Shown: positions 492-62,900 of the stretch, one piece after another | How the letters are laid out: each line of letters begins with the position of its first letter | How positions within the stretch are numbered: position 1 is the first letter of the stretch | Source of the DNA: Eledone cirrhosa | Lineage: Eukaryota | DNA length: 64,000 nucleotides | NCBI GenBank assembly: GCA_964016885.1 | Contig: OZ024765.1 | Coordinates: 12,648,001-12,712,000, forward strand | Direction: 5' to 3' | Notes under the pieces: model-generated | The model's input: only the letters and a program-made list of their open reading frames with translations | What the model was told of the DNA's origin: nothing | Databases searched by the model: none | Program-made: the position numbers and the translations under genes

Positions 492-809
492 CTAAAATAA
501 AGTACCAGTAATGTACTGGATAATTGCTGGTTGTATCAACAAGGATGTGTGTAATCATTTGTACATTATTCTATGTACTATACATGCACCTTTGATGAGT
601 TGTAGTGTACCTGAGCACTGTACACAATAATTTCATTATTATTATTATTATAAAGTAGAAACAATTAATATCATTGATATATATATATGAATGTATATAC
701 AGTGTATTTTGCAATACACTGTATGCTTAATTAAAAGCATTTTGAAGACCTTACGCTATTGTTTTAAAGTAGTGACTAAGTCACTTACTTCTATTTTATA
801 TATATATAT

Positions 810-10484: not shown

Positions 10485-10680
10485 GAGAGAGAGGAAGAAG
10501 AAGAAGAAGAAGAAGAGTCGTTGATGACAACCGAGCTGAAAAATCTGCCATGAGCCTCATTCCCAGAAATGTGGAGAAAATTAATCACCTTGTGAATAAG
10601 GATCGTCGGAGGACAATGAACGATATTGCTGATGTTTTGGGCGTTATAACGGCGGCGAAGATTCGAAACCGAATCTGAGC
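9868..10680 (+). mobile_element. Degenerate mariner-like transposon remnant
   Basis: TIR-like tacgaggtggtatcaaaaagttt; duplicated transposase HTH remnant DDNRAEKS..NVEKINHLVNEDRRRT..DIADVLG. Confidence 0.7.
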
Positions 10681-10750
10681 TTTCCTGCCTCTGGGAGAGG
10701 CATACATATATATACATATATATATATAAACCTATACATATATATACATA

Positions 10751-11078
10751 TATATGTGAAGACAAACATAGAATATTCGAAAATATTCTGTATGTTTATA
10801 ATAAACATTTTGAAGACCCAATAGCTATAGAATAGAATACGTCACGTATTACAATTTGAGAAGTCTCTAGCTGTGTCGTTCTCGATAAAAGCATTGGATA
10901 TGTAATCCTGATGATTTCTAATAAGAATGAAACGCGTAGATTACTTCCCTTGCTTTTATCGAGAATCTCAAATTGTAATACGTGACGTATTCTATTCTAT
11001 AGCGATTGGGTCTTCAAAATGTTTATTATAAACATACAGAATATTTTCGAATATTCTATGTTTGTCTTCACATATATA
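10751..11078. mobile_element. Fold-back element (~110-bp arms) with central hammerhead
   Basis: Arms ~10751-10862/10965-11078 near-perfect; inner stem ttctcgataaaagca/tgcttttatcgagaa. Confidence 0.85.
10902..10944 (+). ncRNA. Minimal type I hammerhead ribozyme
   Basis: gtaatc CTGATGA tttct aata agaat GAAA cgcg TA gattac: 6-bp stem I, palindromic ACGCGT, GUA site. Confidence 0.9.
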
Positions 11079-11127
11079 TCGCTATTTCAGAGCATTAAAT
11101 ACATATATATATACATACATATATATA

Positions 11128-11420
11128 CATCATCATCATCATTAGGTCGAGCATGCTCGGCCTTCTACGACACGTTTCCTCCATCCATCTCTGTCTCTCA
11201 TAGCGTTTGCCAGTTCTTCCGCAGTGCATCCAGTATCGACCTCAAGTTGCTTGACGTATGTTGATGGTTGATGGTTGATGGTGGTTCTTCCACCTGTGTC
11301 TTTTGTCCTTGAGGGTGGCCTCTTGTCTGTTTTCGGAGGAAGAGACAGCATGGTTGATGGTGAAACACCAGGTGTCACGGTTCTCAGCTATGGTGGACCA
11401 CCAGCGATGGCTGATGTAAC
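11128..11420 (-). mobile_element. RTE LINE 3' fragment
   Basis: ORF TYVKQLEVDTGC..ELANAMRDRDGWRKRV; (gat)n tail. Confidence 0.75.
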
Positions 11421-30632: not shown

Positions 30633-30695
<63 letters not shown>

Positions 30696-30699
<4 letters not shown>

Positions 30700-30881
30700 A
30701 ACCAGTAAGACCCCGACAGCTGAGCTCAAGTCGTTTCGACGGCTAATTCTGAATTAGCCGTCGAAACGACTTGAGCTCAGCTGTCGGGGTCTTACTGGTT
30801 CCTATTACCCACTCTACTACCCCAAGTATTGAGTACTTTGGTGCGTTATGGTCCACCTGGTTCCTTACCACATTTCCTTCG

Positions 30882-30940: not shown

Positions 30941-31106
30941 TAGATAGATAAATATACACGGGTGTGTATGATTGTGTATAGAAGATTATATTAATAAGAG
31001 GAATTCCAACTTTGTCTGATTTACTCGTTTTATTTACAATCCTTTAAAATTTATAATGGTATTATAATGAAATAGTATGATAGAATATTAAATTCTAAGT
31101 GTTAAT

Positions 31107-31145
31107 TGAACAAGTACTTTCATGCTTTCGCAATCTTCAGGTTCA
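31107..31145 (-). ncRNA. Minimal hammerhead ribozyme
   Basis: tgaac CTGAAGA t tgc gaaa gca t GAAA gtac TT gttca; AGTACT palindrome. Confidence 0.85.
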
Positions 31146-31238
31146 TAATATGTGGTGACAGTCAAGTTTGCAATTTTCAATTGTTGAAAATTGTTGAAAA
31201 TTGTTGAAAATTGCAAACTTGACTGTCACCACATATTA

Positions 31239-31277
31239 TGAATCTGAAGATTGCGAAAGCATGAAAGTACTTGTTCA
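31239..31277 (+). ncRNA. Minimal hammerhead ribozyme (second arm)
   Basis: tgaat CTGAAGA ttgcgaaagcat GAAA gtac TT gttca. Confidence 0.8.
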
Positions 31278-31390
31278 ATTAACACTTAGAATTTAATATT
31301 CTATCATACTATTTCATTATAATACCATTATAAATTTTAAAGGATTGTTAATAAAACGAGTAAATCAGACAAAGTTGGAATTCCTCTTAT

Positions 31391-31429
<39 letters not shown>

Positions 31430-35231: not shown

Positions 35232-35420
35232 TGGTGGATTGGCAGTATCGGTAGAGAGTCGGACACCATGCTTTGAAGCATAGAGTTACGTCCCTTTATG
35301 ATCTGAGTTCAAATCCCGCCGAGGTTAACTTTGCCTTTCATCCTTACGGGGTCGATAAAATAAAGTACCAGTAATGTACTGAGTAATTGCTGGCCTTGTG
35401 CCTAAAATAGAAACAATTAT
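35232..35420 (+). mobile_element. tRNA-derived SINE family B
   Basis: A/B boxes and shared body. Confidence 0.85.
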
Positions 35421-35814
35421 TTATTCAAAGTAATCCAACTTATTCAAAGTAATCCAACGGGATAAAAAAAAATATTTTCTGGACGCAGTCCCACGCTCCT
35501 CCGTATATTATAGTTAAGATTGAAACCAAAGGGTTAATAATTTATTAAACCACTCCGACTTCTAACGTCAATTTTTTAAGACCTCCCCCTTCCTTGTAGT
35601 ATATATTATTTCCCTCCCCCCACTTCTAGTGTTACGTTAACAACCTTCTTACAAGTGATCTGTTTATAGTACGACAGATGAAAGCGAAGTTAGACGCCAT
35701 AAACCTGAGCCAAGCTTTGGTGTTTCGAGGAAGAAGGTAAAGTTTTTTAAACGACTTAGAAAAAGAAATCGGGTGTGGAGCAAGTAGTAAATGATTCGTT
35801 GTAGGTATGGTAGA

Positions 35815-36800
35815 GGAGGCATGTGGCCTAGTGGTAAGGGTGTTGGACTTACGATCATAATGCCGTGGGTTCGATTCCTGTTCTTGAGCAAAACACTTCA
35901 TTTCACGTTGCTCCAGTATACTCAGCTGAAAATGAGTACCAGCAATATCTGGGGGTTGAAACAACCCTGCGATGTACAGGGTGGTCCGAAAGTCTTGTCA
36001 CCCCTTGTCACATATTGTTTTAACTTTCATTATTTTTTGTTTTAATAATATAATATATAATTGTTTCTACTTTTTGGCACAAGGCCAGCAATTATCCCAG
36101 TGTATTACTGGTACTTTATTTTATCGACCCCGTAAGGATGAAAGGCAAAGTTAACCTCGGCGGGATTTGAACTCAGTCCGTAAAGGGACGTAACTGTGCT
36201 GCAAAGCATGGCGTCCGACCTTCCACCGATACTGCCAATCCAAATATCATTAATTATAATATATAATGGGCGGTGAATTGGCAGTATCGGTAGAGGCTCG
36301 GACGCCATGCTTTGACACATAGAGTTACGGCCCTTGCCATTCTGAGTTCAAATCCCGCCGAGGTTAACTTTGCCTTTCATCCTTACGGGGTCGATAAAAT
36401 AAAGTACCAGTAATGTACTGGGTAATTGCTGGCCTTGTGCCAATAGTCGAAACAATTAATTATAATATATAATAATAATAATATAATTTTCTATTTCAGA
36501 GCTCCTACAGTTTGGAAGAGAGGCTGCTTACAAGTGTATGGACACATGATCGTGTGTATTCTGGTAAGAGCATGGAGGATGTGCGACATGACCTCACTGC
36601 AAGATTCGGCAAACCAGCCCCTCCGAAGAGGACGATACTGCGATGGGAACATAAACTTGTTCTCATTACTTTTTGGTAGGGGGTGACAAGATTTTCGGAC
36701 CACCCTGTACTGGCGTCCTGTCCAATGTGAGAGCGTCTTCTACTCTCAGTCGTTTTACGCAATGAAACCGGGACAAGCACTGACATAACCAACCTTCTCA
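35815..36800 (+). mobile_element. tRNA-derived SINE family C interrupted by a MITE
   Basis: Head tggcctagtggtaagg..gggttcgattcc; body resumes ctggcgtcctgtcc after 36709. Confidence 0.75.
35977..36707. mobile_element. Tc1/mariner-type MITE carrying two SINE-B copies
   Basis: TIRs cagggtggtccgaaagtcttgtcacccc / ggggtgacaagattttcggaccaccctg, TA TSD; SINEs at 36058-36241 (-) and 36267-36458 (+). Confidence 0.85.
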
Positions 36801-37912: not shown

Positions 37913-38088
37913 CGGGGGTATGTGTTACCCATATGAACTGTCTCCCCCTATTGGGGAAAATCGACTAACTTTTTAAATTGCATTTGTGATAACATTTTAC
38001 ACGTTTTTATTGTATGTAAACTTCCCCCTTTGTATTTGTCCCCTTCTTTTGTGCCCCTGTGGCTAATAAAGAAACATATCTATCTATC
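37913..38088 (+). mobile_element. Isolated 3' UTR of Tx1/L1-like LINE in (TATC)n
   Basis: Near-identical to 39115-39285. Confidence 0.85.
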
Positions 38089-39285
38089 TATATCTTTGGA
38101 AGAGGCGGGCTCCTTTGGTGAGAAGATCCATCTGCTGCCAACACCCTTCTAACGGAGGACTGACGATGCCGTGGCTGACGATGCGCAAACACGCGCTTAG
38201 GCTGCGGCATCTCTATGTATTCCTCACCGGACAACCGGTGTGGGCCCCGTTCGTGAGGCGAGCCTTCCCACGACTCATCTCGCTGACCGAGCTGCAGTCC
38301 TTGGTCAAGCAAAGACCGAGGAAAATGGGCGACTGGCACATCGAATGTGCTCAGGCGCTCACAGCCCTCTGGCAAGCGGACCCGGCGATCAGTGGAGACT
38401 CCACTTCGTCATTCTATAGAGGGTTGATCCGCAGCAAGTGCGACGACGCGCTCGGTGAAACTCTAGGCGTAGAGGAAGATGAACTGGCCAGTCTGTTCGG
38501 TACCTTCCGCCCGGGTCCGATGGACAACTTCCAAAAGTCCCTGGCCTGGCAGTGCTACCGAGGAGCTCTACCAGTTCGAGACAAGCTCTACAGACATGGG
38601 CGCCCGGGCAGGGACCCTTCAAAAAAGATCTGTCCGAGGTGCGTGCGAGACGAAGAAACCGTCGCGCACGCATTCATACACTGCTCGGGCGTCACTGACC
38701 TGTGGGGCTATGTAGAACGACTATTGTCGCGGGTGGGACCAATGCGGTTGACCACCGAGTCCATTGTCATGATCAAACCGCCACCCTCCTTCAAAAACGA
38801 AGGAGAGGCGGTTTTCCTTTGTGTGATAGCTATGGCGAAAGAGGTGGACAAGGTTGAAAGGGCTGAGGTCTGACACCTTTCTCTCCGGCCAACAACTGAT
38901 TCTTTTTTTCAAATACCACTTTGGAAGAAGAATCAGGATGGAGAGAGAGGTGCTGTACCCCAGCAAGTTTTATGAAAGGTGGGTGAAAGTGGCAAGAATG
39001 GCCCGAGTGAATGGGCCTTCTCTCTATATCAGCCTGTAGGTTGAGGAAAAAGAGGAGGAGAGGAAAGGGGTACAAACTCTTCGTACTCCTGGAGATGAGG
39101 GTTGCACATTTTTTCGGGGGTATGTGTTACCCATATGAACTGTCTCCCCCTATTGGGGAAAATCGGCTAATTTTTTAAATTGCATTTGTGATAATATTTT
39201 ACACGTTTTTATTGTATGTAAACTTCCCCCTTTGTATTTGTCCCCTTCTTTTGTGCCCCTGTGGCTAATAAAGAAACATATCTAT
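38089..39285 (+). mobile_element. Tx1/L1-clade LINE ORF2 C-terminus (CCHC zinc finger) and 3' UTR, 5'-truncated, frameshifted
   Basis: GGLTMPWL..; LPVRDKL..CPRCVRDEETVAHAFIHC..LW; aataaa then tatc tail. Confidence 0.9.
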
Positions 39286-40904: not shown

Positions 40905-40966
40905 TTCATTTACCAGTGGTTTCTTGAAGACAGATATTTATGTCTGTCTTCAGTCGTCAGAATGAA
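40905..40966 (-). ncRNA. Minimal hammerhead ribozyme
   Basis: ttcatt CTGACGA c tgaagacaga cataaata tctgtcttca a GAAA ccactgg TA aatgaa. Confidence 0.85.
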
Positions 40967-40987
40967 TAACATGGAATAATAGATAGA

Positions 40988-41494
40988 TTTCTTTATTAGC
41001 CACAAGGGCGCAACAAGAAAAGGGGACAATACAAAGACATGCTGGGGATTTTACATACAGTCGTGTAAAAAATATAAAAACAAACAATTTCAACAATCGA
41101 AATCCCCAATAGGGGGGAGGCGCCACAAATGGGTTGTTTAATACCCCGTCGATAGAACAACCCTCAACTCCAGGAGCGTGTTGTGCAAGTGCTCCTTTCT
41201 TCCTTTGCTCTCTTCCTCAACCTACAGGCTTATAAACAGAGAAGGCCCAATCACTCGGGCCATTTTCGCTTCATTCACCCACCTTTCAGTAAATTTACTG
41301 GGGTGCACTGCCTCTCTCTCATCCCTGATTCTCCTTCTAAAGTGATACTTAAAGAAGGGAATCAATTGTTGTCCGGAGAGAAAGGCATCTGTCCTCATTC
41401 CTCTCAACCTCGTCCACCATATAACTTCTTTCACCATAGCCACCGTACAGAGGAAAACCGCCTCTCTTTCGTTTTTGAAAGAGGCTGGCGGTTT
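40988..41494 (-). mobile_element. Tx1/L1-clade LINE 3' fragment with 25-bp TSD
   Basis: Homologous to 38775-39280; tgaataacatggaataatagataga at 40963-40987 and 41495-41519. Confidence 0.85.
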
Positions 41495-41550
41495 TGAATA
41501 ACATGGAATAATAGATAGAAAGACCAAAATCGAGAGAGCACTCGATCAAC

Positions 41551-41590: not shown

Positions 41591-41785
41591 GAGGAACCAG
41601 TAAGACCCCGACAGCTGAGCTCAAGCCGTTTCGACGGCTAATTCTGGACTCAGAATTAGCCGTCGAAACGGCTTGAGCTCAGCTGTCGGGGTCTTACTGG
41701 TTCCTATTACCCACTCTACTACCTCAAGTATTGAGTACTTTGGTGCGTTATGGTCCACCTGGTTCCTTACCACATTTCCTTCGTT
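41590..41785. mobile_element. Family A fold-back copy
   Basis: Hairpin ~41591-41705 plus shared 3' tail. Confidence 0.85.
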
Positions 41786-57003: not shown

Positions 57004-57398
57004 TAGATAAGATATATAATTGTTTCTACTTTAGGCACAAGGCCAGCAATTACCCAGTGCATTACTGGTACTTTATTTTATAGACCCCGTAAGGATGAAA
57101 GGCAAAGTCAACCTCGGCGGGATTTGAACTCAGACTGTAAAGGGACGTAACTATGCTAGAAAGCATGGCGTCCAACCCTCTAGATAAGATATATAATTGT
57201 TTCGACTTTAGGCACAAGGCCAGCAATTACCCAGTGCATTACTGGTACTTTATTTTATCGACCCCGTAAGGATGAAAGGCAAAGTCAACCTCGGCGGGAT
57301 TTGAACTCAGATCATAAAGGGACGTAACTATGCTGGAAAGCATGGCGTCCGACCCTCTACCGATACTGCCAATCCGCCGCCTTTCTAGATAAGATATA
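57004..57398 (-). mobile_element. Tandem pair of SINE-B copies
   Basis: 57017-57181 and 57194-57382; tagataagatata flanks each unit. Confidence 0.85.
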
Positions 57399-58022: not shown

Positions 58023-58108
58023 CAAAAAAAGAGGTGAAACAACAAAGCAAACGACACAATACAATGAAGAAATATATTAGTTTAACGCTTGACATCGTAG
58101 GAAGATAG

Positions 58109-58144
58109 TCTTAACGTTTCGGACACTAGTCCTTCATCAAAAGA
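58109..58144 (-). ncRNA. Minimal hammerhead with C3U substitution
   Basis: tctt TTGATGA a ggac tagt gtcc GAAA cg TT aaga. Confidence 0.6.
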
Positions 58145-58237
58145 TAGAATGAGAAATAAAGGTTGAAATAGAAAGATAGATAGTGAGAAGAGGAAGGAAC
58201 GAAAAATGAAAGAAAAAAAAAACACGTGTGTATTACG

Positions 58238-58633: not shown

Positions 58634-58964
58634 CCCTGAGCACTTTACACACTAATTTCATTATTATTTATATACACAAAAAGAAAAACCGAAATACGTA
58701 TGGCGAACGAACAGAATCATCTGTATTCCTCATCAGCCACCAAAATTGTGTGCATAAGTGTGGTATTGCATAATATTCAGCCCAGGCTGCACGACTGTTT
58801 AGAACACGCCACCAGAAAGATGCGTATGAGATAATAATTCCCCTTCGATTTATATGAAATTTAAATCATAGGTAAATGACAAGATATGATGCCTATTCAC
58901 AAAAGCTTTGAATTGACATTTTGAAAAAAATTGTTTACAAGAAACAAAATAAGAATAAGATTTA

Positions 58965-59153
58965 ATAATTGTTTCTACCATTGGCACAAGGCCAGCAATC
59001 ATCCCAGTGCATTACTGGTACTTTATTTTATCGACTCCGTAAGGATGAAAGGCAAAGTTAACCTCGGCGGGATTCGAACTCAGAATGGCAAGGGCCATAA
59101 CTTTATGCGTCAAAGCATGGCGTCCGACCCTCTGCCGATACTGCCAATCCACC
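58965..59153 (-). mobile_element. tRNA-derived SINE family B
   Basis: Full-length copy. Confidence 0.85.
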
Positions 59154-59360
59154 ACACTGAATAAGATTTAATAATGTAATTTTGATTTGATATATTACAA
59201 AAAATAATGTTTTCTAATTTTTCATGCATTACATTTTACATTGAGTAATATTGAAATGCAGAGTTTTTCTCCATAAATTATATCACTGATTTAAAATCAA
59301 TCATCATTTTCTTACAAAAAAAAATGTGTGAAACGCAGCAAGGCGCGAGTAATTCGGCTA

Positions 59361-59675: not shown

Positions 59676-60128
59676 TAACCCTTTAGCATTTAAACCGGCC
59701 GAATCCAGCCAGAATTCCCTGACCTCTTTCTGTTCAAACCGGCCATAACAAGCTATTCATACTGATGTCAAGGTATTGTTCTCAAAATAAATAATATCAA
59801 AATCTCGTAAATTCGATAATATGTGAGATAAAGGGCGGTGGATTGGCAGTATCGGTAGAGGGTCGGACGCCATGCTTTGCAGCATAGAGGTGCGGCCCTT
59901 TATGATCTGAGTTCAAATCCCGCCAAGGTTAACTTTGCCTTTTATCTTTATGGGGTCGATAAAATAAAGTACCAGTCACGCACTGGGGTCGATTTAATCG
60001 TCTTTCTTTCCCCTCATCCCAAATTACTGGCCTTGTGCCTATATAAGAAATTATAATTATGTGAGATAAAGCCTTTACAGTGAAAATACATTAGTAAATA
60101 TAGAGTAATCTAAATGCTAAAGGGTTAA
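59676..60128. mobile_element. piggyBac-like MITE with nested SINE-B (~59832-60055)
   Basis: TTAA-ccctttagcattta ... taaatgctaaaggg-TTAA. Confidence 0.8.
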
Positions 60129-62839: not shown

Positions 62840-62900
62840 TTTCATTCTGATGACTGAAAGCAAATTTCGTTTGCTTTCAAGAAACCACTGGTAAATGAAA
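62840..62900 (+). ncRNA. Minimal hammerhead ribozyme inside an inverted repeat
   Basis: tttcatt CTGATGA c tgaaagcaaa tttcg tttgctttca a GAAA ccactgg TA aatgaaa; arms ~62726-62773/62883-62931. Confidence 0.9.

Follow-up and report, generated by a model that had tools for sequence, protein, structure and literature searches.

A hammerhead-bearing palindrome in Eledone cirrhosa as a probable insertion scar of a Penelope-type family

Penelope-like elements leave characteristic products in the genomes they enter: inverted 5'-truncated copies, partial tandems and a tail of 30-40 bp that is often one-sided have been described, together with a bias for microsatellites that hides target-site duplications and with hammerhead ribozymes in the pLTRs (PMC8557442; PMC8969392). 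These hammerheads are reported to have a palindromic helix III, to be poorly active and to work as dimers, and they include a U3-A8 variant (PMC4209133; reviewed in PMC6765202). A Penelope-like protein, purified and tested in vitro, was able to cut both DNA strands and to extend them; reverse transcription began at two adjacent sites that bound the tail and are not homologous to the cut DNA, and hammerhead cleavage was not needed for insertion (PMC11167929). Hammerheads are also found in animal retrozymes, which as published are head-to-tail repeats that need two cuts (PMC7229834; bioRxiv 10.64898/2026.07.22.740005). Their mobilizer has been proposed from shared features (PMC7229834) and is supported by co-occurrence and pLTR phylogeny in a study in which one of the nine dimers tested cleaved (bioRxiv 10.64898/2026.07.22.740005). 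Inverted copies or tails on retrozymes are not known from these two reports, and no title or abstract opening among the papers listed by literature searches describes them.

Here, we analyze a palindrome built around a hammerhead in a 64-kb window (the whole stretch of 64,000 nucleotides, to which all coordinates refer). The window is AT-rich, with about 30% short tandem repeat and long (TA)n tracts throughout, it contains remnants of LINE-type elements and it looks like non-coding animal DNA. The palindrome is very likely a young, ORF-less insertion scar that a hammerhead-bearing Penelope-type family left in (TA)n; the source could be either a Penelope-like element, of which this would be the 3' tip, or a short derivative that is not autonomous. 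The link to Penelope would lie in the architecture and not in homology to an autonomous element. As in the 5'-truncated insertions of EN+ Penelope-like elements (described for Penelope/Poseidon, Neptune, Nematis and Hydra; PMC8557442, PMC4209133, PMC11167929), a type I hammerhead with a palindromic helix III lies near a fixed 3' end, the 5' end is truncated, an inverted 5'-truncated copy and a one-sided tail are present and the target is a microsatellite; a diverged relative at 14667-15343 adds a partial tandem and a U3-A8 core. There are also differences. The metazoan Penelope-like hammerhead is minimal whereas this one has a canonical 6-bp helix I, loop 1 and loop 2 and a 4-bp helix II; the tail, about 22 bp, is shorter than the 30-40 bp published (PMC8557442); and the locus has no ORF, in contrast to autonomous Penelope-like elements with their telomerase-like reverse transcriptase and GIY-YIG endonuclease.

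Anatomy of the palindrome

The arms (10748-10861 and 10966-11079) pair over 114 bp with a single mismatch (A10823/G11004). They enclose an asymmetric center of 104 bp, which contains an inner helix (10879-10893 with 10951-10965, 15/15 pairs) and, on the 5' side between outer arm and inner helix, 17 unpaired bases (10862-10878). Near-perfect arms of about 110 bp and a 15-bp inner stem had been predicted, and both are borne out. So is the expected rod: as RNA, 10751-11078 folds at -201.7 kcal/mol (z = -34; none of 100 shuffles is equally stable), a structure that a read-through transcript would form. Inverted repeats were taken from masked searches; the output of the unmasked inverted-repeat finder was dominated by microsatellites.

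The two ends of the palindrome are not equivalent. On the left, a degenerate (TA)/(CA) microsatellite (10702-10755, a period-2 array in TRF), the presumed insertion target, begins at once. By arm alignment, the left arm that directly adjoins it repeats the 3' end of the element in inverted and 5'-truncated form (10748-10861, minus strand), with neither hammerhead nor tail. On the right, the 3' body of the sense copy (10966-11079, plus strand, recognized by homology to the relative) ends in (TA)4 at 11072-79, and about 22 unique bases (11080-11101, plus strand), present at this end only, come before a second degenerate (TA)/(CA) microsatellite that passes into (CAT)n (11102-11130). (TA)n on both sides, as first described, is therefore true of the left; on the right there is an 8-bp TA tract, then unique sequence, then microsatellite. 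Because 14 of 14 bases are identical to the start of the relative's tail, the right-hand bases belong to the element, which does not stop at 11078 as had been supposed and runs on to about 11101 through this one-sided tail. One supplementary file of PMC8557442 contains the exact 14-base tail motif in neither orientation.

The sense copy spans about 240 bp (10862-11101) and carries a closing helix, the hammerhead, three small hairpins, the TA tract and the tail; the inverted 114-bp copy joined to it starts at the TA tract, without the tail. The 17 unpaired bases (plus strand), seen as a gap in the arm alignment, could be the start of the sense copy or junction filler; elsewhere in the window they are matched in one place with 4 mismatches and in none more closely, and the window contains no close copy of the focal sequence. 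As to a target-site duplication, the longest shared 17-mer does not adjoin both ends, and the microsatellite flanks mask any duplication. Further out, 10520-10640 (plus strand) translates to what we take to be a mariner-like helix-turn-helix remnant and 11130-11290 (minus strand) is presumably the 3' end of an RTE-like LINE with a (CAT)n tail, both labels being our own and without database support.

The inner stem closes the ribozyme domain, its strands (both read on plus) lying 29-15 nt upstream of the core and 13-27 nt after the cut. By comparison with the relative, we read this 15-bp stem as native to the domain and the 114-bp outer arm alone as the duplication, because each sense copy of the relative contains, in this register, a 14-bp helix whose sequence is unrelated (28-15 nt before the core and 14-27 nt after the cut). 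An alternative, in which the stem belongs to the inverted duplication and 17 bp are inserted, is rejected on the same ground.

The hammerhead and its relatives in the window

The type I hammerhead (10896-10948, plus strand) is a descriptor match and a sub-threshold match to Rfam HH9. It comprises a 3-bp helix Ib, a 3x1 internal loop, a 6-bp helix Ia (GTAATC/GATTAC, 10902-07/10939-44) and a UAAUAA loop on helix II. The conserved type I core is complete (C3 U4 G5 A6 N7 G8 A9, G12 A13 A14 A15.1, U16.1 and H17, the last two being T10937 and A10938), with CTGATGA at 10908-14, GAAA at 10929-32, the palindrome ACGCGT at 10932-37 and a GUA triplet. Cleavage is predicted after A10938, where the original prediction had placed it. 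The motif, with its 6-bp stem I, ACGCGT and GUA, had also been called canonical, a term that calls for qualification: the base of helix II is a U10.1·U11.1 mismatch with 3-4 bp on top, and helix III of the monomer is one A-U pair with a CGCG cap, extending to 6 bp in the dimer fold.

At gathering score, Rfam gives no match across the whole 64 kb. The HH9 match (10893-10958) reaches 22.1 bits against a gathering score of 52 (E 0.0075) and is one of 29 at E up to 10 in the focal 801 bp, most of the others falling on flanking TA repeats. The antisense strand of the palindrome has no hammerhead core. Within the rod, helix I is likely to form (pair probabilities 0.85-1.0), and helix II (0.13-0.15) and helix III (0) are not, under an energy model that leaves tertiary contacts out of account. 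For the dimer, the minimum-energy fold is a strand-swapped double hammerhead about 6 kcal/mol below two monomers (-29.7 versus -23.6 kcal/mol for 10891-10953; -68.5 versus -62.4 kcal/mol for 10879-10965).

Judged from its sequence, the hammerhead appears genuine, of the type I, dimer-prone kind known from retrozymes and Penelope-like elements. Given that helix II begins with U·U and that helix III has only one pair, the monomer is expected to cleave weakly and the dimer better, via ACGCGU. A U10.1·U11.1 start is known among natural hammerheads and is the mispair reported to be tolerated best (PMC3088659). For retrozyme motifs of the axolotl that have either a single-pair helix III or U·U at the helix II base, monomer cleavage in an hour is reported as 6% and 22%, with much better cleavage by dimers (PMC7229834). 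Since U10.1·U11.1 recurs in three distinct hammerhead sequences of the window (10908, 31140/31244 and 57910), it probably characterizes the family and did not arise newly here.

The diverged relative (14667-15343) has two U3-A8 hammerheads, with cores at 14877 (minus) and 15157 (plus). It consists of a 324-bp unit with tail (14667-14990, minus strand), a partial second unit (14991-15090) and an inverted, tail-less copy (15089-15343); a solo 5'-truncated copy of the same family, without hammerhead or partner arm, lies at 676-799 (minus strand). A profile made from the relative's copies alone matches 10973-11097 (E 2.3e-5) and the focal sense copy, used as query, matches 14813-14675 (E 1.5e-5), a moderate and AT-biased homology in which the composition-bias score is close to the bit score. 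All six family segments share the TA-tract end, and their 5' extent varies. A covariance model of five family segments (R1), built without structure, recovers the known segments; its 8 other matches (E 0.03 or worse) are AT-rich stretches or the reverse strand of copies.

In the relative, the hammerhead sits in the same place with a different sequence: C3-G8 becomes U3-A8, both partners differ in each of the three Watson-Crick helix II pairs and in the first three helix I pairs, the focal U·U is replaced by G-C, and loop 2 reads CAAUAA for UAAUAA, keeping YAAUAA. Its helix III is another palindrome, and its helix Ia has only 4 pairs plus two U·U. The three small hairpins of the 3' body (focal 10977-91, 11019-35 and 11038-57, plus strand) occupy the same places in both families, two of them with one and two both-sided pair changes, covariation that comes from two families only, too few for statistics. 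The MAFFT alignment shifts register after helix III, and the pairs were listed by coordinate.

While 500 block-wise dinucleotide shuffles give a mean of 0.028 hammerheads (maximum 1), the window itself has 14 that fit the type I descriptor. Every one of them has a TA tract within 175 nt downstream, compared with 36% of background positions, and eight have one within 175 nt upstream as well; a tract means (TA)4, and both the 175-nt cut-off and the U3-A8 option of the descriptor were chosen post hoc. An inverted copy of the hammerhead's own downstream sequence lies upstream of 8 of the 14, corresponding to 6 of 12 loci, and is absent at the other six; one family has it at 44699 and lacks it at 46344. 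At all seven palindromic loci examined (these six and 62847) microsatellite lies beyond one arm and unique sequence beyond the other, and the arm ends in a TA-like motif (7/7). With only 0-2 differences between the arms at each of the five loci counted, the insertions are either young or homogenized. Tails at other hammerhead loci reach about 100 bp. A looser first scan had listed more candidates (for example 40960, 54151, 57910 and 62847), which the stricter descriptor drops; under that descriptor, the tandem arrays at 17.6, 52.4 and 60.2 kb have no hammerhead.

Several of these loci have features of their own. A palindrome of about 410 bp (30987-31397) carries a hammerhead in each arm (cores 31140 minus and 31244 plus), with U·U at the helix II base, a CUU triplet, a central 10-bp tandem and a tail on the left only; a CUU triplet should cleave poorly. 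Related tails of 90-100 bp are common to three hammerhead insertions (43726-43975, 44599-44930 and 45870-46175), and at the locus at 43.8 kb the tail alone is inverted at the far end, without an inverted body. Another hammerhead family (26040-26500 and 25176-25364) has a rearranged 157-bp tandem, whose junction truncates the core and which includes an inverted fragment of the tail. At 42030 (minus strand) lies a hammerhead of the minimal form described for Penelope-like elements, in which helix II is preceded by an additional A and the palindrome is 4 bases long; a related copy lies at 58037-58159.

How the palindrome may have arisen

That the inversion is optional, being found at 6 of 12 loci, both present and absent within one family and missing from the solo copy at 676-799, argues for insertion. 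We propose that a GIY-YIG endonuclease/reverse transcriptase, acting in trans, would cut both strands of a TA repeat, and that the two DNA ends would prime two cDNAs at neighboring start sites on the RNA, the end of the tail and the internal TA tract; both cDNAs would stop early and then be joined in the middle. This would produce a palindrome tailed at one end only. The rod would be a by-product of insertion, and the ribozyme the processing element of the family, one that at this locus, where it has no tandem partner, probably does nothing useful. The arm ends fall in a TA-like motif at all seven loci, which suggests that the inner start site was primed in a target-like manner, unlike the in vitro result (PMC11167929).

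Could the palindrome itself be what is mobile or active? Long near-perfect terminal repeats, the lack of an ORF, TA at both arm ends and the presumed mariner-like coding remnant at about 10520-10640 would all suit a MITE with 114-bp terminal inverted repeats and a preference for TA that had captured a hammerhead. MITEs, as described in PMC8969392, are likewise short and non-coding with long terminal inverted repeats and TA flanks; the focal locus differs in its asymmetric ends, its ribozyme, the solo arms and the variable architecture among relatives. The tail extends about 22 bp past the right arm only and is conserved in the relative, so that the symmetric ends of a MITE are not what is found; moreover, no two of the three related loci share an architecture (a solo arm and a partial tandem are among them), 3' ends are fixed and 5' ends variable, and the same pattern occurs in many unrelated hammerhead families of the window. 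We therefore consider a MITE unlikely. A functional 330-nt rod, transcribed, self-cleaving and circularizing like a viroid or retrozyme as the original prediction had it, is highly improbable in spite of the very stable fold, the intact core and a helix I that forms within the rod (0.85-1.0). There is a single hammerhead, in one polarity, and no tandem second unit that would free a monomer; the 114-bp arm is optional in sister loci, the rod overwrites the small hairpins conserved with the relative, and the retrozymes in the literature are arrayed head to tail (PMC7229834). Viroids and viroid-like satellite RNAs share with the locus a hammerhead core, a rod-shaped predicted fold and a similar size, but this is chromosomal DNA, a perfect linear hairpin and not an irregular circular rod, with a ribozyme in one polarity and a single cut site; a viroid-like RNA would be expected either to carry a ribozyme in each polarity or to be processed into unit-length circles. 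The closed 114-bp stem should also hinder the strand exchange that the dimer requires. A cut in the loop would leave a nicked linear hairpin and religation would restore the hairpin, so that no circle is expected from this locus; the suggestion that it is the best experimental candidate is thus fair for a cleavage assay and poor for circles.

Two further explanations place the origin of the inverted arm elsewhere. Palindromes next to microsatellites are error-prone, and a fold-back chimera from assembly or library preparation could produce one; the asymmetric 104-bp center, the mismatch between the arms, the one-sided tail and the same anatomy at six other loci make such an artefact extremely improbable. 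An inverted arm added to a single-copy insertion later, by fold-back repair or replication template switching without reverse transcription, is very unlikely as well: the few shared junction bases at the focal locus and the relative are compatible with microhomology and the arms are nearly identical, but the inverted copies start at the element's TA tract or tail end and adjoin microsatellite at 7 of 7 loci, which is unexpected for general repair, and Penelope-like insertion has been described to yield this arrangement (PMC8557442).

If the palindrome is a Penelope-type insertion scar, as we favor, it is a caution that such palindromes can mimic MITEs or viroid rods; the locus itself is most likely one stub among the very many that hammerhead-bearing retroelements leave in an animal genome. 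The window has a dozen independent loci that carry a hammerhead and this scar, and they offer material for testing the origin of the unexplained inverted copy and tail, and also whether Penelope-like enzymes move retrozymes. If introns across the genome contained palindromes of this kind and these were read through, long double-stranded RNA would also result.

The retrozyme question and other repeats of the window

Whether the family is itself a retrozyme is a separate question. A non-autonomous retrozyme with a monomer of about 324 nt, possibly circular, moved in trans by a TA-targeting Penelope-like reverse transcriptase/endonuclease, is a tentative and rather doubtful possibility. It is suggested by the canonical hammerhead layout of both families (6-bp helix Ia, internal loop, 4-bp helix II and YAAUAA, a non-minimal form) and by the relative, whose head-to-tail period is 324 bp (1.3 units with one hammerhead in the tandem part, hence a period known from one junction in the relative only), whose unit has no sense frame longer than 47 aa and, as a circle, folds with z = -5.2 against 100 shuffles. 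Against it, a template jump would also give the single junction, and local tandems do become rearranged in this window, as the locus at 26.1-26.5 kb illustrates. Like animal retrozymes, the focal locus has a canonical type I hammerhead, low GC and no ORF; its one-pair helix III with a palindromic tetraloop resembles Amex1 and its U·U helix II base Amex2, while the relative's period lies within 150-450 bp and folds well as a circle. Unlike them, the focal locus has less than one unit with one hammerhead, no hammerheads in tandem in at least two units, and an inverted instead of a head-to-tail arrangement. For monomer or circle testing of a retrozyme, the relative at 14667-15343 is a better candidate. 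If the retrozyme reading were true, the inverted truncated copy, the one-sided tail and the 1.3-unit tandem would be the scar left by the mobilizing enzyme; this would provide direct structural evidence for the mobilizer of animal retrozymes and would point to two-ended priming with the inner start determined by a TA tract resembling the target.

In all 281 low-repeat frames of at least 45 aa in the window, Pfam yielded no Penelope-type protein; GIY-YIG matched 0 of 281. The two frames with matches are both LINE-like (an R2/L1-like reverse transcriptase at 22333 and a zf-RVT at 38070), and a smaller scan of 30 frames gave the same two matches plus one below threshold. The first of them, at 22333-22791, is a broken LINE-type reverse transcriptase whose closest solved relatives are R2 and L1, and it is not likely to be the partner of the hammerhead elements. 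Scans for bacterial promoters and terminators and for tRNAs gave nothing informative.

Other repeats touch on the hammerhead loci. A 3' piece of a zf-RVT LINE (40963-41519, matching 38775-39285) lies between perfect 25-bp direct repeats (40963-87 and 41495-519) and directly adjoins the hammerhead at 40960; we read this as a LINE inserted into a hammerhead element with a long target duplication, possibly by targeting. Near-perfect palindromes without a hammerhead occur at 882-966, 26947-27109, 30695-30805, 41592-41705, 44196-44510 and 54510-54905; most adjoin (TA)n at one end, and they are probably shorter products of the same process. The palindrome at 882-966 matches the hammerhead family at 62847. 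Finally, a young, SINE-like interspersed repeat of about 190 bp, which we take to be reminiscent of cephalopod SINEs, is present in many copies with 85-97% identity (17295-17484, 23711-23899, 35233-35421, 36062-36456, 42213-42394, 47965-48145, 57004-57383, 58955-59187 and 59834-59987).
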